NCBI GenBank assembly: GCA_033765235.1
Contig: JANRIG010000022.1
Span: 133,863 to 197,862, forward strand
Reading direction: 5' to 3'
DNA: 64,000 nucleotides
From: Cytophagales bacterium
Lineage (GTDB): Bacteria > Bacteroidota > Bacteroidia > Cytophagales > UBA9547
Of the stretch, positions 4,769 through 23,051 are shown piece after piece. The position numbers and the translations under genes are program-made. The notes under the pieces were generated by a model that was not told the origin of the DNA, searched no databases, and worked only from the letters and a program-made list of their open reading frames with translations. How positions within the stretch are numbered: position 1 is the first letter of the stretch; every line of letters starts with the position of its first letter.

Positions 4769-5848
4769 CTACGAAATAAGCCATATTTTCCACAATGCGC
4801 ATACTATCATGAGTACGAAGCAGATAGGGGTAAGGTATTTCCAACTTAAGCTCATGAGCTGGTCTATGCGCACACGTGGAAATGTCCATCGTACCCATAC
4901 CTGCAATAACATGATGAAAAAAGATTTTGAAAAAATCCAAAACACACCCCAAGCATATCCTGATGCAGTGCCTGCCACTCCTGTAGTATATTGGCATAGT
5001 TTTATTGATCCTATGTTTACAGCAGGGCTGTGATAACCTCCAAAAAATAGAAATACAGCCAATATGCTGAAAAGTAGCATTTTGCAATATTCTGAAAGAA
5101 AAAACACGGCAAATCTAAAGCCTGAATACTCTGTATGAAACCCACCGACTAACTCAGATTCTGCCTCAGGTATGTCAAAAGGGGCACGGTTGCAATCGGC
5201 TAAAGCAGCTATAAAATATATGATAAATAGCGGTATAAAAAAAGGTGCTTGCAATATATTCCAGTTCAATATACCCCCATAATCATTTATCTGTAAGCCT
5301 TTTATGCCAAAAAGATAGTTTGGCAATGATGCATACATGCTTTGAGCATTTGCAATGTGATCAAGGTTGAGCGAGCCGTGCCACATCACCGCTACCAATA
5401 CGCACAAACCTATGGGCACTTCATATGATATCACCTGTGCGGCGGTGCGCATGGCACCTATGAGCGCATATTTGCTATTGGAGCTCCAGCCTGCCAGTAA
5501 TATACCTACTACATCCAATGCCAAAATGCCCAATATAAAAAAAATGGCAGATGCTGAATAGGCAGCAGGGTATGACATGGCGAGAGGTACAAAGGCAAAT
5601 GATGCTAATACTGATAAAAATATAATATAAGGTGCCATTTTGAACAATGCTTTATCGGCCTGAAGGGGCACTATATCTTCTTTTTGTAGTAGTTTGAGCA
5701 AGTCTGCCACAGGCTGTAGAGTGCCCCAAATACCTACATGAGTAGGTCCTAATCTGTCTTGCATGAATGAGGCCATTTTGCGCTCAAAATAAAAAATGAC
5801 TAACACGGTAGCAAGCAAAAGAGGCAGAGCAACTACGAATGCTATCAC
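4769..5848 (-). CDS. nuoH: NADH-quinone oxidoreductase subunit H (complex-I type), not inside a nuo operon
   Basis: 359 aa. FERKMASFMQDRLGPTHVG, AGWSSNSKYALIGAMRTAAQVISYEV and PFDIPEAESELVGGFHTEYSG align along the full length with canonical NuoH/ND1. GTG start 4 nt after the upstream lipoprotein gene's stop. Confidence 0.85.
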   Translation of the reverse strand: MIAFVVALPLLLATVLVIFYFERKMASFMQDRLGPTHVGIWGTLQPVADLLKLLQKEDIVPLQADKALFKMAPYIIFLSVLASFAFVPLAMSYPAAYSASAIFFILGILALDVVGILLAGWSSNSKYALIGAMRTAAQVISYEVPIGLCVLVAVMWHGSLNLDHIANAQSMYASLPNYLFGIKGLQINDYGGILNWNILQAPFFIPLFIIYFIAALADCNRAPFDIPEAESELVGGFHTEYSGFRFAVFFLSEYCKMLLFSILAVFLFFGGYHSPAVNIGSIKLCQYTTGVAGTASGYAWGVFWIFSKSFFIMLLQVWVRWTFPRVRIDQLMSLSWKYLTPICFVLMIVCALWKIWLIS

Positions 5849-5852
5849 AGTA

Positions 5853-6608
5853 TCAGTCAGTTAGGTCATCTACGAAATATCTCAGTATGGAGTTGTCCAT
5901 CATTTGCCTGTCTGCCAGTACTTCTTCTATAGGGGTGCGAAAAAAATATTCTACACCTGCAGCATCGGTCAGGTAAAAGGTATATTCCTCTGAGGTAGTG
6001 CCATCGGGTTTGTACAATTTTTCTTTTCTGGCAAATTTCCTGTTTTCAAGGCTGCTTATTGCTGAGTCTAAGCCTTTGTTGCGCAGCTCTTTAAACATTA
6101 CTCTACATATATTTTTATTGTTTCCGGTCTCACTATATTCGGAGGGTATGAATAGGTTTATAGAGTGTACTTTATAGGTCTTTGTACCTGATACTACATC
6201 AAGAAATATGCTGTCATTGAGCTCTACTCCCATAAGTTTGGGGTTGAATAAATCTGCTTCATCTATATTATTGGTATCTGTTACAGCAAGCAGGTTTTGA
6301 CTTAGCATAGATAGGCATATTTGTTTGTATGATAGGGCACGGCCGGTGTCATTAATAGCTCTGATGCTACCTTTTTTTATTTGGTTAAATACACTTTCGG
6401 GAAATTTTTCAAATTCTTCATTTCCTTTCACCACCACCATTTTGCCGGGGTTTAGTGAGTCATTGAAGTCTATCTCATGCACCCTTAAAAACCATGAACC
6501 TCTGAATTTGAGAGGCTTGGCAAGTTTTTTATTTTCAGGAGGGTTGCAACTAAGTATAGTAGCAATAATGGCAATGATGCAAATGCAAGAGGGGATATTC
6601 ATATTCAT
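5853..6608 (-). CDS. Hypothetical lipoprotein
   Basis: N-terminus MNMNIPSCICIIAIIATILSC with a lipobox-like Cys. No family recognised. The track start (6620) is TTG; the ATG at 6608 is preferred. Confidence 0.5.
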   Translation of the reverse strand: MNMNIPSCICIIAIIATILSCNPPENKKLAKPLKFRGSWFLRVHEIDFNDSLNPGKMVVVKGNEEFEKFPESVFNQIKKGSIRAINDTGRALSYKQICLSMLSQNLLAVTDTNNIDEADLFNPKLMGVELNDSIFLDVVSGTKTYKVHSINLFIPSEYSETGNNKNICRVMFKELRNKGLDSAISSLENRKFARKEKLYKPDGTTSEEYTFYLTDAAGVEYFFRTPIEEVLADRQMMDNSILRYFVDDLTD

Positions 6609-6771
6609 ATTCAAATACAAGATACTTATAAATTATTCTGCCAATATAGTATTTTTTTATATATGTAGTATTATCCGCTATTAAGAATAATGTGTTAATG
6701 AAGTTTAGATAAGCGTTTTTTCTTTGTCATGCTCAACAGGGTTTTCATACCATGTTATTTTCAATATCACA

Positions 6772-6832: not shown

Positions 6833-7621
6833 CTACATGCCGGAGAGTAGCTTATTCTTTTTTTTGATGAGATCAAGTACGCCGTTTATGAAGGTGAGAG
6901 GGTGAGGCGGATTGCCGGGTACAAATAAATCTATAGAGTATTTATTGATAAAATCTCTTCTTAGTGCAGCACTTCCTGCAAATATACCTCCGCTTATGGC
7001 ATCTGTACCTGCCAAAATAATGATTTTGGGTGCGGGCACAGCATCAAAGCAAATCTGTAAGGCTTCCTCCATATTGGCTGTGACAGGTCCACTGATGACT
7101 ATACCATCTGCATGGCGCGGCGAGGCCACAAAAGATATGCCGTAGCGGCCCATGTCAAAGTTTACATTGCTGCAAGCATTGAGTTCCCACTCAGTACTGT
7201 TGTCGCCTCCGGCAGATATTTGCCTGAGCCTGAGTGAGTGGCCAAATATTTTTCTTATTTCTTTTCTTACCACATTATCGTCTATTTGTATAGTTGCATT
7301 ATCACTTGCATTTATTATGAGGTTGTTACGGTTATTGGTTGCTATTTTATAATCGTTGGTGAAGTGTATTTTCTTTTCGCCAAGCATGCGTTCACACTCC
7401 TTGCAAAACACACATTTGCCCAAATCTATACTTATGGGTGTGTCTGATATAGCACTTGTAGGGCATAGCTTGGCTACTGCTTTTGCTTCATCGTCAGTTA
7501 TGGTGTTTGATATGACAGGTCTGCCCATGGCATAGGTATCGGGCAGCACCGGTTTGGTGATGTCGGGTATGTATTGCTTACCTTGATGCTTTATGATTTG
7601 GTATGTATCTAAGAAAAACAT
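6833..7621 (-). CDS. NuoB/HycG-like small subunit lacking all four [4Fe-4S] Cys ligands, fused to an N-terminal half-ferredoxin
   Basis: SPRHADGIVISGPVT and the overall NuoB fold motifs are present. The canonical CxxCE, GTCA.SGG and PGCPP motifs read GDNSTEWE, GTDAISGG and PGNPP. The N-terminal extension carries CP-x16-CxxCxxC. Confidence 0.8.
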   Translation of the reverse strand: MFFLDTYQIIKHQGKQYIPDITKPVLPDTYAMGRPVISNTITDDEAKAVAKLCPTSAISDTPISIDLGKCVFCKECERMLGEKKIHFTNDYKIATNNRNNLIINASDNATIQIDDNVVRKEIRKIFGHSLRLRQISAGGDNSTEWELNACSNVNFDMGRYGISFVASPRHADGIVISGPVTANMEEALQICFDAVPAPKIIILAGTDAISGGIFAGSAALRRDFINKYSIDLFVPGNPPHPLTFINGVLDLIKKKNKLLSGM

Positions 7622-7671: not shown

Positions 7672-9195
7672 CTATAAATCATGCCCGCAGTAGCTGAGGT
7701 CAAAGCTTTTGTTGCACACCGGGAAGTCTGATATTTCATTGTTTCTCAATGCTATGGCAAGTGCAATCCAGTTGTTGAAAGAGGCATCTTTTATCTTGTA
7801 TTGTAATATTTCGCCGGTGGTGCCTGTGATTATTGCATGCATGGTTTCGCCACGCCAACTTTCGGTGAGTGATACTACAAGTTTATTCGCAGGCAAGGTG
7901 TAGCCAAATATATTGTCGCGGTATTTGTCAAAATTGTCTGTACTGGCTTCGAGGGCAGAAATTAATGTGTAAATATATTTTATAGAATTTCTTATCTCCA
8001 AGTCTCTTATTTTGCTTCTTGCATAAGTGTCTCCGTCTTCTAATATGGCTTTGTCGGGTTTTGAGGTTAGGTAATATTGGTAGCTGTGTGTGAGGCGTAT
8101 ATCTCTATTTATGTCCATGGTGCGTGCTATCATGCCTGTAGCACCTGTGAGCAAGCCTTGTTCAGTGGTCACTATCCCTGTTTTCTGAAGTCTGTTTAGC
8201 ACATTGGGCTGGCTAAATGTCTTGTCTGATATTTCCACATATTTTTTTTCAAATACTTGAAGCACATTTTTGAGGTTGCTGAGTAGTGCAGTAGTAAGTG
8301 GATATGGCTCATAACCTACTCTGAGCAAGCCTTTGGCAAATCTGTTGCCGCACCATGATTGAATGTAGTTGATAATGGGTGTACGCAGTGCACCAAATAC
8401 TGCACTACCCAATTGGTATGCAATATCAGTACATATACCACTAAGGTCGCCCACATGTACTGCTATGCGCTCCAGCTCTGAGGCTATGGTGCGTGAGATT
8501 TGTATTCTATTAGTAGGTATATATCCTATTATACTTTCTACAGCCATGATGTGCGCCAAGGCATGTGCCACTACCGCATCGCCTGCTACAGACTCTGCAA
8601 GTATCATGCGCTGGAGTGGGTGCAGCTTATCTATGAATAGACTTTCTACCCCTCTGTGTTGGTATCCGAGTTGTATTTCCAGATGTTTCACATTTTCGCC
8701 AACGCATACAAATCTAAAATGCCCCGGCTCAATGACGCCTGCATGTATAGGTCCTACACCTACCTCGTGTACTTCATCGCCGGATATGGTAAAAAACGGG
8801 TAGTTGAAAATTTCATGAAGTTTATTTTTTCTGTTATGAGGGTATCTTACAGGTTTGAGCCACGGATGATCAATGAAATCTATGCCATAGTTTTCACAAA
8901 TTTCGCGCTCATACATAGCAATAGACGGAATATCAGGCACCAATGAATGTATAGCCTTAAAAAATTGTAAATACAACTCATGAGCTGTTACATATAGTAG
9001 ACAGGTCTTGTCATGAGCTATGATGATGATAAACCTGAGCACCCCTTGGTGCTTGTAGGCATGATAGGATATGATGTGGGCTTGAGTATCTTTTAAAAGT
9101 ACAATAACAGTATCACAAAAATCTTCATATCTAAGCACAGGCACATCATGTATATCTACCGGCTCTGCATTGGATATTTGAATATATTTTTTCAT
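7672..9195 (-). CDS. Fused NuoC/NuoD (HycE/HyfG-like) large subunit lacking the [NiFe] Cys ligands
   Basis: VGPIHAGVIEPGHFRF and LGYQHRGVE motifs. The L1 position reads ESVAGDAVVAH (Cys to Ala twice). The C-terminal L2 position reads DLSYCGHDL instead of D[PL]CxxCx[DE][RL]. The ATG at 9195 gives an ATGA overlap with the upstream gene; the track's 9276 start would overlap it by 85 nt. Confidence 0.8.
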   Translation of the reverse strand: MKKYIQISNAEPVDIHDVPVLRYEDFCDTVIVLLKDTQAHIISYHAYKHQGVLRFIIIIAHDKTCLLYVTAHELYLQFFKAIHSLVPDIPSIAMYEREICENYGIDFIDHPWLKPVRYPHNRKNKLHEIFNYPFFTISGDEVHEVGVGPIHAGVIEPGHFRFVCVGENVKHLEIQLGYQHRGVESLFIDKLHPLQRMILAESVAGDAVVAHALAHIMAVESIIGYIPTNRIQISRTIASELERIAVHVGDLSGICTDIAYQLGSAVFGALRTPIINYIQSWCGNRFAKGLLRVGYEPYPLTTALLSNLKNVLQVFEKKYVEISDKTFSQPNVLNRLQKTGIVTTEQGLLTGATGMIARTMDINRDIRLTHSYQYYLTSKPDKAILEDGDTYARSKIRDLEIRNSIKYIYTLISALEASTDNFDKYRDNIFGYTLPANKLVVSLTESWRGETMHAIITGTTGEILQYKIKDASFNNWIALAIALRNNEISDFPVCNKSFDLSYCGHDL

Positions 9196-10625
9196 TTGGG
9201 CAAGTGTGCTACAGACATTTTGATATATTCTACAAGTTCTATGTTTGGATGCAATCCTACCCAAAATACTATGCAAAGCAATATGTATTGTGTAATTGAC
9301 TCATAAGGCTTTATAATTTCAAATACAGGAATATTGCTACGCAGAGGTGCGAATAATATATGAAAAAAATCTTTGGATAATAATGCAAATATATAGACAA
9401 GTAATACAATAATACCCACAGGCACAACCCAATGCCATGAAATAAAAAGTGACTTTAAGGTATAATACTCAGTCAAAAACAGCACTGACGGCGGTATGCC
9501 GAGTATTGATACAAAACCTAAAAAAAGTACTAATGCGCCGGCAGGGTTTAGTTTAAAGTAAGCCCCTGTAAAGTCTAAGTTTTTGGTCAAATACACCCTG
9601 TAAAGCTGCCCAATTTGAAAAAATATGGCAGATTTGATGAGCGAATGAAATACCAGATGCAATACTGCTACAAAATACCCGGCGTGTCCGCAGGAAAGTG
9701 CAATGATAGCTATGGCAGCGTGCTCTACACTTGAGTAGGCTAATAGTCTTTTGAAGTTCTTTATTTTGAAAAGATATATAACCACAAAAATAAGCGAAGC
9801 TATACCTATGATAATGAGTATTTTATCCATCCATGGCTTGATAGATGTGAATACAAAAGATTCATAAAATCTGAATATGGATACAAAGCCCACATTCATA
9901 AGCCCGCCTGAAAGCATAGCACCTACGGGCGATGGGGCTATGTCTTTGGCATCTATATCTACTGTGAAAAGTGGTACCACACCCAACTTCACACTAATGC
10001 CAATGATGGCAAACAAAAAGCAAGACTTCAACCACATAGGGCTCATATGAGGGGTGGTTTTTTGCAATTCGGTAATATATAAGCCGGTCTCATTGGTCTC
10101 TTGTGCGGCTATCCCTAACAGTAATATACCTGCGTAGGCAAGTGCCAGCCCTATGGAGCTCACAAAAAAGTATTTCCATGCAGCCTCGAGTGAGTGCGAA
10201 TTGCGGTCGTGGTATATGAGGATGGATGCCACTATGGTAGTGGCTTCGAGAAAGCACCATAGCAAACCCAAGTGCTCTGATATCAATACCCCCGTCATAG
10301 ATGCCACTAGCCCAACCATGGAGGCATTGTGTATGGCAATAATTCTTTTTTTTGACCTGCGGTTAATTGAATAAAGTGCAGTATGTATTACGGTAGGTAC
10401 TATCAATATAGATATTACGGTCATAAATATCAACCCTACCTTGTCAAACCTCAGATATTGACCTATTAATGTGCCTTCGTGTATGAAACACTGATAGTTG
10501 AAGTACCAATGTAACAGTACAAACGGCACATACAAAAGATAGCCTGCCAAAGTATGCCTCACAAACACCATGACACACATAATGATGAATGAAAGTACAA
10601 AATAAATGATGACTATTTCTAACAT
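9192..10625 (-). CDS. NuoN/HyfF-like antiporter-type membrane subunit
   Basis: 477 aa with about 14 TM helices and a Proton_antipo_M-like core (APSPVGAMLSGGLMNVGFVSIFRF). TAATG overlap with the upstream gene. Confidence 0.7.
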   Translation of the reverse strand: MLEIVIIYFVLSFIIMCVMVFVRHTLAGYLLYVPFVLLHWYFNYQCFIHEGTLIGQYLRFDKVGLIFMTVISILIVPTVIHTALYSINRRSKKRIIAIHNASMVGLVASMTGVLISEHLGLLWCFLEATTIVASILIYHDRNSHSLEAAWKYFFVSSIGLALAYAGILLLGIAAQETNETGLYITELQKTTPHMSPMWLKSCFLFAIIGISVKLGVVPLFTVDIDAKDIAPSPVGAMLSGGLMNVGFVSIFRFYESFVFTSIKPWMDKILIIIGIASLIFVVIYLFKIKNFKRLLAYSSVEHAAIAIIALSCGHAGYFVAVLHLVFHSLIKSAIFFQIGQLYRVYLTKNLDFTGAYFKLNPAGALVLFLGFVSILGIPPSVLFLTEYYTLKSLFISWHWVVPVGIIVLLVYIFALLSKDFFHILFAPLRSNIPVFEIIKPYESITQYILLCIVFWVGLHPNIELVEYIKMSVAHLPK

Positions 10626-11290
10626 TAATCTTTAAGTTCGGTAAGGTTACGTATCTCTATGGCTTTGAATATGCCTTTGGCACGGTTGAGGAATACTCCT
10701 AATAGAAATACGGTGGTGAGTATGTCAAATAATATTCCCATATTGATGATGATGGGGAGCTCTGTGCCCATGGCAAGCGATAGCATAAAGAGTCCGTTTT
10801 CAAGTACAAGATAGCCAACTATATGAGTAATGATTTTTTTGCGCCTCATAATTATGAGCAACCCTGTGAGAATGGAAGATAACGATGCTGTGAAATATAT
10901 AATTTCATGGGTATGTTGCTGAAGCCTGTATGCATTGCCGGTTTCAAAATTTATATGAAGTTCGTAGCCAAAAAAGAAGGAGATTATGAAAATAATGGCA
11001 ATCTTAAAAAGTGAATAAAAGTTGAGCTGGTCGGGCTCGCGCTCATAGAATATGTTATTTTTTTTCATCAAATAATATAAGTAATACGGTACTATAATGC
11101 CTTTGAAAATCAAGGTTTCTAATAAAATAAATGTAAGATTGATAAGGTGCATCTCTTTGAGCTCTGACAGTACTATGGCAAAGAGTAATATGCCTTGTAT
11201 GGCAAGTGAATATATGTATGAAAGTACCCTGCCGGCATTGATGAGGTATATAAGTGTCATGCAATATAATATGATAAAGAGGTTTGTCAT
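10625..11290 (-). CDS. HyfE-like small membrane subunit
   Basis: 221 aa polytopic membrane protein. It sits in the position, and has the size, of HyfE between the HyfC-like and HyfF-like genes. Confidence 0.5.
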   Translation of the reverse strand: MTNLFIILYCMTLIYLINAGRVLSYIYSLAIQGILLFAIVLSELKEMHLINLTFILLETLIFKGIIVPYYLYYLMKKNNIFYEREPDQLNFYSLFKIAIIFIISFFFGYELHINFETGNAYRLQQHTHEIIYFTASLSSILTGLLIIMRRKKIITHIVGYLVLENGLFMLSLAMGTELPIIINMGILFDILTTVFLLGVFLNRAKGIFKAIEIRNLTELKD

Positions 11291-11293
11291 GGT

Positions 11294-12202
11294 CTACAAT
11301 TTATTCATTATCAATACAATACCAAAAAATAATATGAGAGCTAAAACAGTGAGGATAAAGATAAAATTAGGATTTTTTTTCATACGCTCTCGCGCTCTAA
11401 AACTCTCTGCCATACCTACTGTGACTGCCAGTGCAAACTGCAATCCAAAAAATAAAAGGAGCTCTTGCACAATATTCATACCCGAATGGAGCAAAAAATT
11501 GCACATAAGCAACCCAAACATAGCAAACTTGAGCGACACTGAATAGGTCAAAATTGCCATATCAAAAGCAGAGTTGTCAAGTATCATCACCTCATGTATC
11601 ATGGTGAGCTCAAGGTGTGTATTTGGGTCATCTAAGGGCAGCCTGCTGTTTTCTATCATCATGATTTGAAAAAGCAGAAAAAATGCCAAAATAAGCAAAA
11701 ATATAGAGGTAGAATCACTGTAATTGATAAAATCGTTGAACATATCAGCAAATGAGGTAGTGCCTGTGTACATGGCAAAAGAGCCCATGAGCAAAAAAAA
11801 CGCTGGCTCTGCCAGCAGTGCATATAATGCCTCGCGATTGGCTCCCATGCCTTCAAAGGGACTGCCTGTGTCCATAGCTGCAATAATCATGAAAAACCTG
11901 CCCACTGCCAACATATATGCGAAAAATACAAAATCTCCGTCAAACGATATCACCGCCTGCTGGTCGTGAAAGGGCAGTACCAATAGTGCACATACTATGC
12001 TGCTGAAGTATATACTCGGTGCTATTTTGAATACGAAACCGGTGGTGGTGCTATATATGGTTTGTTTTCTTAACAGCCTCACTATATCATACATATGCTG
12101 CAATAATCCGGGTCCTTTGCGCCCCGATGCTATGGCTTTTGTACGATTGACTACCCCTAAAAAAAATATAGATGCTACCACCACTGCTATGATGCCTATC
12201 AT
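11294..12202 (-). CDS. HyfC/HycD-like (NuoH-family) membrane subunit
   Basis: 302 aa polytopic protein. Gene order and size match HycD/HyfC. ATGA overlap with the upstream gene. Confidence 0.65.
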   Translation of the reverse strand: MIGIIAVVVASIFFLGVVNRTKAIASGRKGPGLLQHMYDIVRLLRKQTIYSTTTGFVFKIAPSIYFSSIVCALLVLPFHDQQAVISFDGDFVFFAYMLAVGRFFMIIAAMDTGSPFEGMGANREALYALLAEPAFFLLMGSFAMYTGTTSFADMFNDFINYSDSTSIFLLILAFFLLFQIMMIENSRLPLDDPNTHLELTMIHEVMILDNSAFDMAILTYSVSLKFAMFGLLMCNFLLHSGMNIVQELLLFFGLQFALAVTVGMAESFRARERMKKNPNFIFILTVLALILFFGIVLIMNKL

Positions 12203-14166
12203 ATAAGTTGCAAATAAGTGATGAGAAATAAACCTATAATAAATGCAAATGCATACAATATATAAGTCTGCGTGCGCCCTGTCTGAAATACAGCAAATCT
12301 TTTAATAAATTTGGTAAGGGCTATGGCAGGCATAGTTACAAATTTTACCTCCAATACGTCTTTGATATTGGTCACGTATGATGATTTGGCAGGATAAATG
12401 TCAGTATTATGTATTTGTTTTTCTCTGTTTTTGGAGTAAATAATAATAGATGCCAGCTCACGCAAATTTTGGGTGAATGAGGTAGAGGTATATTGTAATT
12501 TGCTGGTAGGTGCTGTGTAGCCACAACCCCAGGTAGGCCCATACTTTGCTGTGTTATGTTTTTCTACATATGTTTTCAATAAATAAATTGCTATAGTAAT
12601 GATAATGAATAGAATAGACACTATACTTATATGATTCATCATAGATATGGTATTGGTCTGTACATATATATTTTTTATTCCAAAGGTCATAATCACAGGA
12701 TTGAGCATATTTATTAACAAAAATGGAAACAAAGATATGCATAGTATAATGATACAAATAAGAGCTTGAGGCACAAGCATCCATGTGTCAGCCTCATTTT
12801 TGGCTATGTGCTCACTACTTCTGCTGCTTCCCAAAAATGTGATACCATACATTTTGCTAAAGCAAAATAATGACAAACCTCCGGTAAATGAGAGGCATAC
12901 CAAGCCTATCACCAAAAGTTCATCTATAGAAACATCGCCTTTTTTGAACTCGCCCATGATGGCATCGTAAATAATGTATTCGGAGATGAAGCCGTTGAAC
13001 GGGGGCAAACCGCTGATAGCTACACAACCTGTAAGAAAAAAGATTGCAGTAACAGGCATATTTTTGGCAATGCCACCGAGTAGGTTCATATTTTTGGTAC
13101 CTGTAGCATGATATACAGCACCTGCACCATAAAATAGAAGAGGCTTGTACAAAGCATGGTTGAGTATATGCATGATGGCTGCCGCAAAACCCAGATAGCT
13201 CAGTGCTTCATTGTTCACAGCCTTGCCCAGTACACCCAACCCCAATGCCAAACCAATGATGCCCATATTTTCTATGCTACTGTAGGCAATGGTTTTTTTT
13301 AGCTCATTTTGCATGCACGCGTGGATGATGCCATAAATAGATGAGAATGCACCTACTACCAGCATTATAATGCCATAGGCTTGAAAGTCATACTGCAGCA
13401 TAGAAATGAGGCGAATGATGCCATAAATACCCATTTTGCTCATAGCACCCGAAAAGAGGGCTGAGGCATGTGCAGGTGCTACATTGTACACATGCGGCAG
13501 CCATGTGTGCAACGGGATAAACCCTGCTTTGAATGCAAAGCCGATAAAAAATATTAAGAATATCAAGCTGTCTTTTCCTGATGCCAAAAATTGTGCAAGC
13601 CCTCCAAAATCTGCCTCATAACCATTGATTTGCAGCATGATAGTGCCGCCTGTAAGAAATATAATGCATATGTGCATCTGCACAAAATAGTAGAGTGCAG
13701 CCTTCATCACATCTTTTTGGTCGTTTTCAAACATCATTACCAAAAATGAAGCCAATGTCATGATTTCCCAAAATATCAAAAATGGAATAAGGTTTTGTAC
13801 CATTGCCACCAATAGCATGAATATTTGCAAAAGGTTGAATGAAATAAGGTGCAGGTTGAGTGGGTGAGGGTCTGTCTCATATTTAAGATAGCCTTGTAAA
13901 TAAATGGAGGAAAACAAAGAAATGGTATTAATGATAATAATATAAAATACAGCCAACCCATCTACGCAAAAGGAGAGCTCACCAATGAGTGGTATCATAG
14001 TGGAATAGCTATAAAATGTACCCTTTGTCAAATACAGATATACTATAATACCTGAGGCTATATTCACTGCTATATTCATGAGCAATGCATACATACATTT
14101 GTACTTGACAGGCACAAATACAATGAGCGGTATTAAAAATAAAGTAAAGATGTAGTTCCAAGACAT
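12199..14166 (-). CDS. HyfB/NuoL-like antiporter-type membrane subunit
   Basis: ~655 aa with a Proton_antipo_M core (HTWLPHVYNVAPAHASALFSGAMSKMGIYGIIRL). The track start (14184) is TTG; the ATG at 14166 (MSWNYIF..) is preferred. Confidence 0.8.
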   Translation of the reverse strand: MSWNYIFTLFLIPLIVFVPVKYKCMYALLMNIAVNIASGIIVYLYLTKGTFYSYSTMIPLIGELSFCVDGLAVFYIIIINTISLFSSIYLQGYLKYETDPHPLNLHLISFNLLQIFMLLVAMVQNLIPFLIFWEIMTLASFLVMMFENDQKDVMKAALYYFVQMHICIIFLTGGTIMLQINGYEADFGGLAQFLASGKDSLIFLIFFIGFAFKAGFIPLHTWLPHVYNVAPAHASALFSGAMSKMGIYGIIRLISMLQYDFQAYGIIMLVVGAFSSIYGIIHACMQNELKKTIAYSSIENMGIIGLALGLGVLGKAVNNEALSYLGFAAAIMHILNHALYKPLLFYGAGAVYHATGTKNMNLLGGIAKNMPVTAIFFLTGCVAISGLPPFNGFISEYIIYDAIMGEFKKGDVSIDELLVIGLVCLSFTGGLSLFCFSKMYGITFLGSSRSSEHIAKNEADTWMLVPQALICIIILCISLFPFLLINMLNPVIMTFGIKNIYVQTNTISMMNHISIVSILFIIITIAIYLLKTYVEKHNTAKYGPTWGCGYTAPTSKLQYTSTSFTQNLRELASIIIYSKNREKQIHNTDIYPAKSSYVTNIKDVLEVKFVTMPAIALTKFIKRFAVFQTGRTQTYILYAFAFIIGLFLITYLQLI

Positions 14167-14360
14167 GTTGTACAAACTTAACAATTATTTAACAATCGCA
14201 AAAAAAAAATGATGAGCCATGATAGTATTGTACATAATACTTACTACAGCCACGTAAGATTTTAATAACATGGGCAAATAATTTATGAAAAGTGATATTT
14301 ATTAAAAAATTTGGAAGTAAAATTAAAATTATTTACATCTATTGAGGGCTGCATACGTAT

Positions 14361-15941: not shown

Positions 15942-17498
15942 ATGACTAGACAAAATATATTGTGGGCAGACGACGAGATAGAATTATTGAAACCTCATAT
16001 CCTATTTTTGAGCAACAAGGGGTACGACATCACAGCCGTGCAAAGCGGGGCAGATGCGTTGGACAAGTGCCATACTGCACCCTATGATATTGTATTTTTG
16101 GATGAAAATATGCCGGGCATGTCGGGTCTTGAAACACTCACCCAAATAAAACTGCTTAAACCCAACCTCCCTGTCATAATGATCACCAAGTCTGAAGAAG
16201 AGCGAATCATGGAAGATGCCATAGGCAGCAAAATAGCTGACTATCTCATAAAACCACTGAACCCCAACCAAATACTGCTGTCTGTAAAAAAAATATTGGA
16301 CAACAAACGCTTGATATCCGAAAAAACTACTTTGGCTTACCAGCAAGAGTTTAGAAACCTGAGCATGGCATACAATGAGCCTCTTAACCATGAGCAATGG
16401 GCAGAAATTTATAAAAAATTGGTGTATTGGGAAATAGAAATAGACCAATCGCAAAACAAAGAGGTGCTCGAAATGCTGGAAATGCAAAAACACGAAGCCA
16501 ATGCCAACTTTATCAAATACATTATCAAAAATTATGAAAAATGGCTCAATGATGTGCAGGTGAGCAAACCTACCCTATCGCACCAGATTATGAAAAAAAT
16601 GGTGTTTCCTCATATCAATGCTGACACTACTACATTTTTTATACTTATAGACAACCTCAGGTATGACCAGTGGCGGTGCATAGCCCCTGAGGTGCAAGAC
16701 ATGTTTGATATCATAGACGAAAGCTCGTACTATGCCATACTGCCTACCACTACCGAGTTTGCACGCAATGCCATATTCTCAGGACTCATGCCCTCTGATA
16801 TGGAAAAATATCATCCCAATCTGTGGATAAATGAAGATAACGAAGAAAAACGCAATGCCAACGAAGACAAATTTCTTGAAGCACAGCTCAAACGCCATAA
16901 AATAGATACCAAATATTCATACCACAAAATATTGAATGCCACGCAAGGCAAAGCCTTGAACGACAACCTTAATAACCTCATGGGCAATGGCATCAATGCG
17001 GTGGTGTACAACTTTGTAGATATGCTCTCGCATGCCCGTACAGATAGCCATATGATTAAAGAACTTGCACCTGATGAGGCTGCATACAGAAGCATTACCT
17101 TATCGTGGTTTTTGCACTCACCGTTGCACGACTTACTCAAGTTTTTGTCTGAGAAAAAGGTAAAAACCATCATCACTACAGACCATGGTACCATAAAGGT
17201 AAAAAATCCTGTAAAAATAATAGGCGACCGCGAAACCAATACCAACCTAAGATACAAAGAAGGCAAAAATCTTTCGTTTGAAGAAAAAGGCACCTTTCAT
17301 ACCCGCAAGCCCGAGCGGCTGATGCTGCCCAAGCACAACCTCACCTCAAGCTATGTATTTGCGCTCAACCAAGACTTTTTTGCATATCCCAATAACTATA
17401 ATTATTACGTAAGCTATTACAAAGACACCTTTCAGCATGGAGGAGTATCCTTAGAAGAGATGATAGTACCGCTCATCACCATGGTGGGCAAAGGGTGA
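15942..17498 (+). CDS. porX: T9SS response regulator PorX (receiver domain + PglZ/alkaline-phosphatase-like domain)
   Basis: 518 aa. ILWADDEIELLKPHILFLSNKGYD..VFLDENMPGMSGLE receiver domain, then a PglZ-type C-terminal domain. Size and motifs match PorX. Confidence 0.85.
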   Translation: MTRQNILWADDEIELLKPHILFLSNKGYDITAVQSGADALDKCHTAPYDIVFLDENMPGMSGLETLTQIKLLKPNLPVIMITKSEEERIMEDAIGSKIADYLIKPLNPNQILLSVKKILDNKRLISEKTTLAYQQEFRNLSMAYNEPLNHEQWAEIYKKLVYWEIEIDQSQNKEVLEMLEMQKHEANANFIKYIIKNYEKWLNDVQVSKPTLSHQIMKKMVFPHINADTTTFFILIDNLRYDQWRCIAPEVQDMFDIIDESSYYAILPTTTEFARNAIFSGLMPSDMEKYHPNLWINEDNEEKRNANEDKFLEAQLKRHKIDTKYSYHKILNATQGKALNDNLNNLMGNGINAVVYNFVDMLSHARTDSHMIKELAPDEAAYRSITLSWFLHSPLHDLLKFLSEKKVKTIITTDHGTIKVKNPVKIIGDRETNTNLRYKEGKNLSFEEKGTFHTRKPERLMLPKHNLTSSYVFALNQDFFAYPNNYNYYVSYYKDTFQHGGVSLEEMIVPLITMVGKG

Positions 17499-20061: not shown

Positions 20062-20910
20062 ATGAGACACTATTATATAGCATGGTGCATAATTATTGGG
20101 TTGATTATTTACAATATAAGATGCAAACCTACTGAAGATGCTGTACCTATTGTTCCTATGAATAATAATACAAGTATAGTAGGAGTAAATACAGTAATAG
20201 GTGCAAGTACAATAACAGGCTCACATACTACATGTGGCAATGCTACAATAACAGGTACAAATTCAGTACTTGGTACAGTATTTAATATAATTACGATAAT
20301 TGGCAATGTACCCGGCAACCATACAATACTGGGGCTTAATACCTTAACAGGGGAAACAACGATATTAGGTATTGTAACAACAGCTGACACTAGCACATCT
20401 GTTATTATTAAACCAAGCTGTACCTATACAGGTGATTATTTTGTAAACCGCCTTACTACAAACCAAATAGACTTGCCCATACGTAAATCCATAGTAATAT
20501 TGCCTGAACACTTACGAGTAGAATTCAAAGCATTACTTTGGGACACACGATGTCTTGACCCGAATTTGCCAAAAGTAGTATGTGAACCTTGGCCTCCCGA
20601 GGTATTGGTAAAGTATGAAATAAGCGATGCCCAATGCAATACTTATGAAACATATATGTCTAAATACGATTTTTATTTAAATATACTAATTTTATCCTAT
20701 CCATTACCAAAATCTCAAAATGTGTACAGTACCTTAACCTTTACAGGATTTAATATTGAATACCAAAATATACTACCTAAAAAAGTGATAGATACTACAG
20801 TCTATCCATTTTATGATGTTGATAATATAACAATAGTAAGGATTGATACATTCTTTATTCCCATTGTAAAGGATACAAATAGTTATACGCTAAAACTTAA
20901 GTTAAACTAA
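20062..20910 (+). CDS. Secreted/lipoprotein-like protein with a hexapeptide ([LIVT]-G-x4) repeat tract
   Basis: Gly recurs every 6 residues across IVGVNTVIGASTITGSHTTCGNATITGTNSVLGT. Hydrophobic N-terminus. Its stop overlaps the next gene's ATG (TAATG). Confidence 0.55.
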   Translation: MRHYYIAWCIIIGLIIYNIRCKPTEDAVPIVPMNNNTSIVGVNTVIGASTITGSHTTCGNATITGTNSVLGTVFNIITIIGNVPGNHTILGLNTLTGETTILGIVTTADTSTSVIIKPSCTYTGDYFVNRLTTNQIDLPIRKSIVILPEHLRVEFKALLWDTRCLDPNLPKVVCEPWPPEVLVKYEISDAQCNTYETYMSKYDFYLNILILSYPLPKSQNVYSTLTFTGFNIEYQNILPKKVIDTTVYPFYDVDNITIVRIDTFFIPIVKDTNSYTLKLKLN

Positions 20911-23051
20911 TGCTTAGAAGACATATATTGACAATATACTTTTTACTAAATTTTAGTTTTTGCATCGGTCAATTTTTTTTTACTGATTCTATTGATTATA
21001 TCCTAAAACCAAGCTTTTATAACAAATATTTAGAAATAAAAGATAGTTTATTTATTACCCCCGATGAATTTATTTCTAACTACTCAAGCAAAATTATTGG
21101 TAACAGCAAAAGTAAACTATTATATGTTCGTACTAAAACGGACCCATCAGGGAATATCCACAAAACTTACCAACAATATTATAACAATTATCCCATAAAT
21201 GACGGATATGTAATATTGCATTGCATCAATAGTTATGTTAATAAAGTAACGGGCAGTTTATACTATAATTTTACAGCAAGCAGCAATATGACACATACAA
21301 TAAAACCTAAAAATTTAATAAAAAATATGGTTCCCAAAAATATAATGAAAGACAAAAGGACTTCCATAGAATATAAATGTAAATATATAGATTGTGATAC
21401 TACACCTTTCAAAAAAGAAATGATATTAAGCCATGAGATAACCGTTTATAGTGATACAAATAACTATGACTATACATTCTATTTTTTTGCATCAAATGAT
21501 AAATATTTGTTTAAAAACAAAAACACAAAATATTGTGCGCCAAATTATTATACACCTACTTCTGATGAGACAGTAGAAAATTGTGCAAACATAAATTTTT
21601 ACAATACAGACAAACAATTTTTCGCAGATTATGAAGTAAGTAAGGCTGCTTATTTGTCAAAAATTAAAGGTAATAGACCTATGTTAAACGATTTCAACCG
21701 TACAATATATAACAATATAAATGTTGTAAATGGAGGTCAATTTATTACTTCACCAACTTTATTTCAGTGGAACAGTCCTGTTCAACGTGGTGCGGCTACC
21801 TATCTATGGGCAGCAGAATTTTTTTATGATTATGCATATGACAACTATGGTTTTAGTACTGTTGATAACAAAGATGGAAACATATCAATAGTACTTAATA
21901 GTTCTGTATCTGCTGGAATACTTGCTTCTTATAGTAATAAAGTAGTCAACATTGTTGGGGTCAATGTTATTAGACCTGCTGTTTTATGGCACGAGTTAGG
22001 TCATTCCATAGCAGACCAAATTTGGGGAAATGGTACTGTCGTCATAGGAGAATATCCCTTTTTCGAAGGTATTGCTGATATTACTAGCATGGTAATACAA
22101 TATGCATATACAGGAGGTAATGTACTATGGGAATCTGTTTATAATCCATCATGGTCAGTTAACGCAACTATAGGAGATGTAGATTGGAATAATCCACATA
22201 GGAATGAAGATGCACAAAAACGTATAATTACTCATTGGTTTTATATAATGTGCAACGGGCAAACTGGTTTTAATACATTAGGATATCCTTATAATGTGTC
22301 AGGCATAGGCATAAATAAGGCAGACAAAATATTATTCCATGCTATGGAATATTACAGCTATCAAGGCATTAGTTTAAAAGATGCATTAGTAAACTGCTTA
22401 TTATCAGCAGCAGACTTATATGGCAATTGCTCAAATGAGTATATACAAACATCAAATGCAATAGAAGCTGTAGGTATAAGAAATGGAACAACAAATTGGG
22501 GAAGTGATTACAATTTATGTTTGGATATAAACTCTTCAATTTCATCACAATTTATATTTGCTACCGGGGTCTTTACTTTATCAAATAATTGCAGCACTAT
22601 TGTGAGAAATAATTCAACTTTAATTGCTAATTCTTCTACAAAAGTGGTTCTTAAACCTGGTTTTAAAGCAGAAAGGGGGTCTTTTTTCCATGCAGGTATT
22701 ACACAATGTTATAATCCTACTGTTTCTAAAACACCTCCAATTTACAATTCATCAAGAAAAGAATACATCGAAACTTCACATTTAAACAAAATAGTTGCTA
22801 AAAAATATATCCCTGATGTATTTCCTAATCCATTCGAAAATACTTTTAACATAGATTATAACCCCGATAGCATATCTAATAATTCAAATTTTTATAGAAT
22901 AATTGATATAAACTCAAAAACTATAAAAGAGGGTGCCTTTAATGTAGGCAGCAATCAGGTTGATATGTCGTCTGTAGGTACTGGGTTGTATTATTTACAA
23001 TTATATTTATCTGGCACCTACAGCAAAACTTTCAAAATTGTCAGGAAATAA
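20910..23051 (+). CDS. Thermolysin-like (clan MA(E), M4/M36-like) zinc metalloprotease with T9SS type-A C-terminal sorting domain
   Basis: HELGH zinc motif with a downstream FFEGIADI (third-ligand Glu region), about 20 residues later. C-terminal ..VFPNPFENTFNIDY...GLYYLQLYLSGTYSKTFKIVRK sorting domain. Signal peptide. Confidence 0.75.
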   Translation: MLRRHILTIYFLLNFSFCIGQFFFTDSIDYILKPSFYNKYLEIKDSLFITPDEFISNYSSKIIGNSKSKLLYVRTKTDPSGNIHKTYQQYYNNYPINDGYVILHCINSYVNKVTGSLYYNFTASSNMTHTIKPKNLIKNMVPKNIMKDKRTSIEYKCKYIDCDTTPFKKEMILSHEITVYSDTNNYDYTFYFFASNDKYLFKNKNTKYCAPNYYTPTSDETVENCANINFYNTDKQFFADYEVSKAAYLSKIKGNRPMLNDFNRTIYNNINVVNGGQFITSPTLFQWNSPVQRGAATYLWAAEFFYDYAYDNYGFSTVDNKDGNISIVLNSSVSAGILASYSNKVVNIVGVNVIRPAVLWHELGHSIADQIWGNGTVVIGEYPFFEGIADITSMVIQYAYTGGNVLWESVYNPSWSVNATIGDVDWNNPHRNEDAQKRIITHWFYIMCNGQTGFNTLGYPYNVSGIGINKADKILFHAMEYYSYQGISLKDALVNCLLSAADLYGNCSNEYIQTSNAIEAVGIRNGTTNWGSDYNLCLDINSSISSQFIFATGVFTLSNNCSTIVRNNSTLIANSSTKVVLKPGFKAERGSFFHAGITQCYNPTVSKTPPIYNSSRKEYIETSHLNKIVAKKYIPDVFPNPFENTFNIDYNPDSISNNSNFYRIIDINSKTIKEGAFNVGSNQVDMSSVGTGLYYLQLYLSGTYSKTFKIVRK

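Follow-up and report, generated by a model that had tools for sequence, protein, structure and literature searches.

What can a hydrogenase-like small subunit still do when most of the ligands of its iron-sulfur clusters have been replaced? A gene in a stretch of 64,000 nucleotides (nt) from a Cytophagales bacterium (assembly GCA_033765235.1, contig JANRIG010000022.1, positions 133,863 to 197,862), here called the window, raises this question. The gene occupies 7621..6833 of the window on the minus strand as an intact open reading frame (ORF) with an ATG start, and the ORF list and the sequence identify it as a fused small subunit of the EhrS type, 262 amino acids (aa) long plus a stop. The complex to which it belongs is of the energy-converting hydrogenase-related (Ehr) type, and its electron wire is interrupted on either side of a single cluster.

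The small subunit is a natural fusion of a full-length HycF/NuoI-type module (residues 1 to ~118) with a HycG/NuoB-type module (residues ~119-262), since each half was found independently by sequence profiles and the NuoB half was also found by structure. A sequence-only reading of this locus had proposed such a HycF-HycG (NuoI-NuoB) fusion and had assigned the C-terminal part to the NuoB/HycG type, and both proposals are supported. The C-terminal domain (residues 119-262; 6836..7267, minus strand) matches Pfam Oxidored_q6 (PF01058) over residues 144-250 with E=2.4e-17. It also matches NCBIfam NuoB over residues 145-254, at 79 and 74 bits against cut-offs of 116 and 143. Searches of the PDB with phmmer returned MbhJ of the Pyrococcus membrane-bound hydrogenase (6cfw_J; E=6e-21, residues 121-261) and E. 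coli HycG (7z0s_G; E=4.6e-15). An AlphaFold2 model of the small subunit, built on 120 homologues (predicted local distance difference test score, pLDDT, 89.6; predicted template modelling score, pTM, 0.87), found HycG, MbhJ and complex I PSST chains as its best Foldseek matches, with a target-normalised template modelling (TM) score of 0.81 against MbhJ. The domain had been called free of cysteine, which was an overstatement. It contains C150 and C191, neither of them at a ligand position, and it is therefore only free of ligands.

The ferredoxin domain (residues 1-118; 7268..7621, minus strand) was recognized by NCBIfam, a family profile and the AlphaFold2 model. The NCBIfam models of NuoI, HycF and NdhI all match residues 62-105, and the NuoI model (TIGR01971) does so with E=2e-7. 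A profile of 30 N-terminal domains of the small subunit family was searched against the PDB and matched HycF (7z0s_F) over residues 23-106 with E=1.2e-9, MbhN (6cfw_N) with E=2.8e-8, the best NdhI and NuoI chains with E about 1e-7, and TYKY/NDUFS8 with E about 1e-6 to 1e-5. The match spans nearly the entire domain, including the FRG(K/R)P segment upstream of motif 1; at the position of the family's FRGRP the window protein has YAMGRP. The domain is made up of an N-terminal amphipathic helix, the GRP motif, a degenerate motif 1, motif 2 and a C-terminal FTNDYKIA segment. In the AlphaFold2 model, strands and helices alternate after the amphipathic helix (helices at residues 2-12, 43-52 and 75-80; strands at 35-37, 58-60, 63-66 and 85-87), with a core pLDDT >90. 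The ferredoxin part is a complete HycF/NuoI homologue in which one ligand set has been substituted, and it is the ligand set that is halved rather than the domain. The description of this part as half a ferredoxin therefore stands for the ligands, of which four cysteines are retained, and falls for the domain, which is of full length.

The only cysteines of the N-terminal domain are C53, which is followed by P54, and C70, C73 and C76. Their codons lie within 7394..7465 on the minus strand (C53 7465-7463, C70 7414-7412, C73 7405-7403, C76 7396-7394), and they were assigned as medial [4Fe-4S] ligands from conservation, from the correspondence with MbsN and from the alignment to motif 2 of NdhI and HycF. 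In MbsN, the distal cluster is bound by C61, C64, C67 and C106, and the medial cluster by C71, C96, C99 and C102 (PMC8165549). The distal set consists of the first three cysteines of motif 1 and the fourth of motif 2. The medial set consists of the fourth cysteine of motif 1 and the first three of motif 2, which is the set retained in the small subunit. The four cysteines had been taken for the complete ligand set of one cluster, and the match to MbsN bears this out. The distal ligand positions are occupied by T42, A46, V49 and L80 in the window protein, and L80-G81 stand where the Cys-Pro of motif 2 is expected. The positions of the lost proximal ligands fall within 6911..7204 on the minus strand. 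In the alignment with MbhJ, D140 (7204-7202) and T143 (7195-7193) fall on the two cysteines of GSCNGCDIE, D207 (7003-7001) on the cysteine of GACPTGG and N237 (6913-6911) on that of PGCPP. None of the four proximal positions holds a cysteine in the window protein, and all four substitutions read from the letters (to D, T, D and N) were found to be correct. Eight of the twelve ancestral cluster ligands are lost in total.

Because the kept cysteines match the MbsN set of C71, C96, C99 and C102, the surviving site is, as judged from the sequence, the medial, N6b-equivalent site, and both neighbouring clusters are gone in the window protein. Two further observations agree with this assignment. His42 of M. 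smegmatis NuoI is close enough to N6b to coordinate it (PMC10068793). It sits in a YHGRH segment, whose motif counterpart in the small subunit family is G33-R34-P35, as placed by the alignment of HycF FRGKP to the family profile; among the 198 orthologues introduced below, G33 and P35 are invariant and R34 is present in 184. In the wider fusion family, a one-sided loss always concerns the distal set among the 150 representatives listed. Many of these proteins, for example those from Wallbacteria, hold the medial set together with an intact proximal set, which makes sense only with these two sets as neighbours. It is thus very probable that the medial cluster, with C53, C70, C73 and C76 as predicted ligands, is the only one that the window small subunit can still bind.

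Conservation was followed in three samples of orthologues, comprising the 120 best database homologues, 81 sequences from species-representative genomes and the window, and 198 unique Bacteroidota sequences. In the search for homologues, 7842 of the 8000 candidates scored had E<=1e-3. The sequence-only reading had put itself at risk on this point by naming variation of the four N-terminal cysteines among orthologues as evidence against it. The four are invariant in 120/120, 81/81 and 198/198 sequences, at a mean column identity of ~68% and among proteins about 60-70% identical. The NDUFS7-type loop ASPRHADG of the C-terminal domain is near-invariant as well (R169 and D172 in 198/198, H170 in 197/198), and C191 is kept in 188/198.

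The former proximal site shows a different pattern. D140 is present in 186/198 orthologues, D207 in 196/198 and N237 in 192/198. Position 143 is a cysteine in 110/198 and otherwise A, T, N, S or D. The complete proximal set occurs in 0/198; at most one of the four positions is a cysteine, and variably so. Three of the four are something else in essentially all of the 198, in line with the earlier claim that the cluster facing the catalytic site is gone. Every one of these proteins has a carboxylate at position 140 or 143, and wherever position 140 is Ala or Ser, which is so in 11 sequences, position 143 is Asp. The D/x/D/N conservation and the constant carboxylate imply that the proximal site is still constrained, but not as a four-cysteine site. 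The compensatory shift of the carboxylate between 140 and 143 suggests that the site may have taken on a new role, for example in a salt bridge or in the binding of protons or a metal.

If the proximal site still bound an iron-sulfur cluster through Asp, Asn and Thr, the protein would be a functional small subunit of the hydrogenase or complex I type with an N2-like cluster. Ligation of a [4Fe-4S] cluster by Asp is known in some ferredoxins. The conservation of D140 and D207 speaks for such a cluster, as does the proximal cluster of the MBS complex, which is bound by only three cysteines (PMC7684303). However, the window protein has D, T, D and N in place of all four cysteines, the single cysteine that family members may have is itself variable, and the large subunit described below offers neither NiFe nor quinone ligands that such a cluster could serve. 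We consider this arrangement very unlikely.

The distal site has a history of its own. All eight ferredoxin cysteines are present in 29/198 Bacteroidota orthologues (~15%). A neighbour-joining tree with Fitch parsimony placed the eight-cysteine state at the root, with about two losses in the sample. We had considered that this state might be scattered over the tree through multiple independent losses within Bacteroidota, which was not borne out. Beyond this phylum, fusions of ~250 aa with 12, 8 or 4 ligand cysteines occur in Wallbacteria, Cloacimonadota, Nitrospirota, Nannocystis and Methanomassiliicoccales, and every intermediate ligand state is present among the relatives in other phyla.

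Six closely spaced genes, some of which overlap, form the operon on the minus strand, and the small subunit gene stands at its end. The first (12199..14184) encodes a HyfB/HycC/NuoL-type antiporter-like subunit with an ND3-like C-terminal extension, identified by NCBIfam as hydrogenase 4 subunit B (458 bits) and matching HycC (7z0s_C) with E=2e-56. Its charged residues were mapped from PMC9474812 through the alignment to HycC. The HyfB-like subunit retains the Glu of transmembrane helix (TM) 5, the Lys of TM7, the Lys and Ser of TM8, the His/His/Lys of TM11, the Glu of TM12 and the Cys of the ND3 loop; the TM7 Lys is absent from HycC itself. The second gene (11294..12202) encodes a membrane anchor subunit of the HyfC/HycD/NuoH type (Pfam NADHdh, 105 bits). 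It matches HycD (7z0s_D) with E=5e-26 and retains the counterparts of the E-channel residues Y102, R108, E130, E138 and E189. A HyfE-like small membrane subunit (10625..11290) was recognized by NCBIfam NF008556 (E=7.8e-15) and by its conserved operon position, and an antiporter-like membrane subunit of the HyfF/NuoN type (9192..10625) by Pfam Proton_antipo_M (127 bits) and NCBIfam hydrogenase 4 subunit F (184 bits). Scans for promoters and terminators gave results no better than shuffled sequence.

The large subunit gene (EhrL; 7672..9195) combines a NuoC-like and a HycE/NuoD-like part (Pfam Complex1_30kDa and Complex1_49kDa). Its likely start is the ATG at 9195, which overlaps the stop codon of the HyfF-like gene as ATGA. 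The mechanical ORF reaches 9276, and residue numbers used here follow this ORF of 534 aa. The protein matches HycE (7z0s_E) with E=2e-32. The positions of the NiFe-binding cysteines of HycE are A231, A234, S528 and G531 in the window protein, and they are A, T/S, S and G across 72 large subunits. The quinone ligands H38 and Y87 of Thermus Nqo4 (2fug_4) align with I182 and G232. The loop and canopy residues were mapped through the HycE alignment and the paper on the formate hydrogenlyase structure. They include H178, the His of the beta1-beta2 loop, the adjacent Glu-Pro and the canopy Arg R475, which, like E183, are among the 128 positions that are at least 95% conserved. The pocket itself is very strongly conserved (E228, D233, H238, R475, S528, Y529, G531, D533 and the exact C-terminus). 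The window large subunit differs from 71 other Bacteroidota orthologues in lacking several cysteines that are near-invariant there, namely C68 (71/72), C84 and C85 (65/72 each), C479 (70/72) and C481 (49/72), where it has I, I, I, M and A. The window lineage thus seems to have shed further cysteines of the large subunit yet kept the four cluster ligands of the small subunit.

Such losses raise the question of whether the operon is simply a decaying relic of a hydrogenase-4-like cluster whose remaining cysteines are mere leftovers. The eight lost ligands of the small subunit and the missing family cysteines of the large subunit could be read in this way. Decay is hard to square with six intact ORFs joined by translationally coupled overlaps, with the occurrence of the operon in at least 579 matched genome stretches, and with four cysteines and dozens of other positions that are invariant at this level of divergence. 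The conservation of the cysteines, the loops, the proton-channel residues and the operon order excludes a decaying relic, which we regard as scarcely credible.

Ehr complexes are group-4-hydrogenase-like operons whose large subunit lacks the NiFe-binding cysteines (PMC6349859, PMC10284858, PMC7304191). They occur in Geobacter and many other lineages, and the NiFe-less large subunit is their defining feature. The window operon has a NiFe-less large subunit of the group 4/NuoD-like kind, and it brings antiporter-, NuoH- and HyfE-like genes together with the large and small subunit genes. No hyp-like maturation genes were found among the window ORFs scanned. In relatives of known structure, neighbouring clusters lie less than 12-14 Å from one another, and it is only by way of the proximal cluster that the medial one connects to the active-site chamber (PMC8165549). 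Without a proximal cluster, the medial site would be about two hops away from the pocket of the large subunit, a distance that probably does not allow electron transfer at catalytic rates. Both the interruption of the electron wire on either side of this site and the lack of ligands for NiFe or quinone argue that the complex is neither a hydrogenase nor a canonical quinone reductase.

A redox-driven pump with an unrecognised chemistry is the alternative that has to be weighed most carefully. The medial cluster would be its terminal redox centre and would receive electrons from ferredoxin or flavodoxin, either without an intermediate or, in the relatives with eight cysteines, by way of the distal cluster. 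It could itself be the site that acts on a substrate, the part played by the proximal cluster in MBS, or it could pass electrons to a metal without cysteine ligation at D140/(C143)/D207/N237 and from there to the large subunit pocket. A pump would give a use to the invariant ligands of the medial cluster, to the distal cluster kept in some orthologues, to the strongly conserved pocket, and to the conserved D/D/N with its obligatory carboxylate. Relatives in other phyla hold the medial and proximal sets beside the same NiFe-less large subunit, so the ancestral Ehr complex was probably redox-active, and there is a precedent for an Fe-S cluster as catalytic site in MBS (PMC7684303). The two-hop gap, however, would be too long for catalytic rates, and the variability of position 143 (C, A, T, N, S, D) does not fit a fixed metal site with four ligands. 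The window lineage has no distal cluster and hence no obvious entry path for electrons. No oxidoreductase partner gene is conserved in the operon flanks, as judged from clustered flanking ORFs of the related loci. We therefore treat a redox pump as possible but doubtful.

The explanation that we favour, and consider on balance probable as a whole, is a one-cluster Ehr arm in which the cluster has a structural or sensing function within an ion-translocating machine. The peripheral arm would be kept for assembly and for conformational coupling to the intact ion-translocating membrane arm. The lone cluster may serve as a structural element, as a redox or oxygen sensor that gates the membrane arm, or as both. 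The complex as a whole would then be a cation or proton translocator and not a redox enzyme. A structural role has been proposed for cluster N7 of complex I, and the structural part of this explanation is drawn by analogy with it. These functional assignments are tentative, and we give them somewhat less than an even chance.

Several observations weigh against this explanation. Both the presence of the cluster in the small subunit and the cargo of the complex are predictions. The conserved D/D/N and the carboxylate shift may reflect a replacement metal or proton site. The orthologues that keep the distal cluster have a two-cluster stub, for which a role in electron entry is a more natural reading than a structural one. 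The conserved pocket of the large subunit could mean that chemistry persists there, and a structural or sensor role for the cluster leaves this conservation unexplained. Finally, the additional cysteine losses in the large subunit may mean that the window lineage is atypical.

The complex is common in Bacteroidota. When one genome per species was scanned, at least 579 stretches proved to encode a relative, and operon order was checked in the best 80. Among these 80, every record named to a taxon is from Bacteroidota, including Chryseolinea serpens DSM 24574 (locus L057). The gene order is kept in most of the loci with enough upstream DNA, sometimes with a second HyfB-like gene, and one locus is rearranged. 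The same operon is present in a Wallbacteria locus, where the same kind of NiFe-less large subunit, which shares even the C-terminal NLSYCGHDL, stands beside a small subunit that retains the proximal cysteines. This combination suggests that the NiFe site was lost first and that the proximal cluster was lost later, in the Bacteroidota line.

Clustering of the flanking ORFs revealed a single association, with genes of SulP, SbtA and a porin-like protein, and this only in a subset of loci. In nine Cytophagales-type loci (L035, L037, L047, L049, L060, L070, L071, L077 and L079), a SulP-family gene (~750 aa) lies downstream of the operon on the same strand, within ~150 nt of it in 8/9, and a porin-like gene (~490 aa) follows it in 8/9. 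In the two loci closest to the window protein (70% identity; L083 and L084, 8803-11949), this place is occupied by SbtA together with a PII-like gene of 94 aa and the porin-like gene found in the other loci. SbtA was assigned by Pfam Sbt_1 (E=2e-116), a family that Pfam describes as Na+-dependent. SulP or SbtA is thus found downstream in 11 related loci, 10 of which share the porin-like gene; the association is absent at the window and in most loci. Known bicarbonate transporters belong to both the SulP (BicA type) and the SbtA family. The exchange of one for the other in a fixed frame suggests a possible link to the uptake of inorganic carbon or to the ion gradient that drives it, and a literature search for a connection between Ehr complexes and bicarbonate transport found none. 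The Bacteroidota complex could be imagined as a complex-I-type machine without through-electron transfer, with its former quinone or hydrogenase module turned into a gate or sensor around one isolated [4Fe-4S] cluster that controls a cation/proton translocator. In part of the family, as the neighbourhood in 11 loci hints, this translocator would energise or join inorganic-carbon uptake. We think this reading unlikely.

Other genes of the window were also considered. A predicted lipoprotein of 255 aa (5853-6620, minus strand) lies directly downstream of the operon and has a sub-threshold GldN/PorN match (Pfam, 22.1 bits against a cut-off of 23). Between it and mrdA/rodA lies a canonical lone NuoH gene (4769-5848, minus strand; Pfam NADHdh, 362 bits; NCBIfam NuoH, 299 bits against a cut-off of 305), and no other nuo genes were found among the window ORFs scanned. 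The lipoprotein gene and the solitary nuoH were rejected as parts of the system because in none of the 80 related loci does either stand beside the operon. Elsewhere in the window, a 7537-aa ORF (30750-53363, plus strand) carries more than 30 FG-GAP/VCBS-type repeats, TIG/IPT domains and a TcdB_toxin_midN-like region in its first 4000 aa, and its product looks like a giant surface or adhesin-type protein. Two further plus-strand genes, for a PorX-like response regulator with a PglZ domain (15942-17498) and for an M4 metallopeptidase that carries a type IX secretion sorting domain (20910-23051), are hallmarks of Bacteroidota and fit the placement of the window in this phylum, to which its homologues also point.

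Complex I and the membrane-bound hydrogenases have widespread relatives in the Ehr complexes. In a very large clade of Bacteroidota, the relay is reduced to a single invariant cluster site that has no neighbour on either side, so that the complex cannot depend on the distal-medial-proximal wire of the superfamily. Relatives with three, two or one cluster beside the same NiFe-less large subunit form a natural experiment that can separate what the peripheral arm needs for coupling from what it needs for electron transfer. A cultured member of the family, C. serpens, opens the way to experiments. Annotation is affected as well. Names such as 'NADH:ubiquinone oxidoreductase', 'Ni,Fe-hydrogenase III small subunit' and 'formate hydrogenlyase subunit 7' are misleading for these proteins and would inflate the counts of hydrogenases and complex I in metagenome surveys.

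Comparison with known systems places the window complex among several better-described relatives. Its antiporter-like subunits share canonical charged residues with the Mrp antiporters, and MrpA and MrpD are among their PDB matches (7qru, 6z16). Mrp antiporters have no peripheral arm and no Fe-S cluster, whereas the window complex has a peripheral arm. Subunits of the MrpB/C/F/G type were not identified in the window operon, in which the sole small membrane subunit is HyfE-like. MBH and MBS from Pyrococcus furiosus (MbhN+MbhJ and MbsN+MbsJ) have the same distal/medial/proximal architecture. They retain three clusters and a complete Mrp module, in contrast to the window complex, which has one cluster site and, beyond the anchor, only HyfB-, HyfE- and HyfF-like subunits. 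In MBS, the cluster complement was remodelled for new chemistry (PMC7684303).

With the small subunits of group 4 [NiFe]-hydrogenases (HycG/HyfI/MbhJ), the window protein shares the NuoB/Oxidored_q6 fold; it lacks the four proximal cysteines and a NiFe partner, and the window ORFs scanned include no hyp-like gene. The best sequence and structure matches of every window subunit are to E. coli formate hydrogenlyase/hydrogenase-4. The shared features include the FRG(K/R)P motif, the NDUFS7-type loop, the His of the beta1-beta2 loop, the canopy Arg and the E-channel residues. In E. coli, HycF and HycG (HyfH and HyfI) are separate proteins whose three clusters lead to the NiFe site, while in the window they are fused, with one cluster site and no NiFe site. 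Unlike the E. coli enzyme, the window system has no HycB or FdhF partner. The Q-module of complex I, formed by NuoI (N6a, N6b), NuoB (N2) and NuoCD, has homologous folds; the retained site corresponds to N6b, and the large subunit is a fusion of the NuoC-NuoD type. In contrast to complex I, the window complex has no N2, no N6a, no quinone ligands and no N-module.

The closest counterparts in kind are the Ehr complexes. The operon GSU0739-45 of Geobacter sulfurreducens (EhrA-1, EhrC, EhrL, EhrS) encodes NuoL-like, HyfE-like, large and small subunits (PMC7894505). The window operon has the same kinds of subunit, a comparison made by subunit composition. Ehr goes unmentioned in a 2021 review of complex-I-like enzymes (PMC8165549). 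We found no description of a small subunit with a single medial cluster in the accessible literature; the founding Ehr papers lie outside that search, and an earlier mention is possible. What the literature describes for Ehr complexes is the loss of the NiFe ligands only, whereas the small subunit of the window also lacks both the proximal and the distal cluster.

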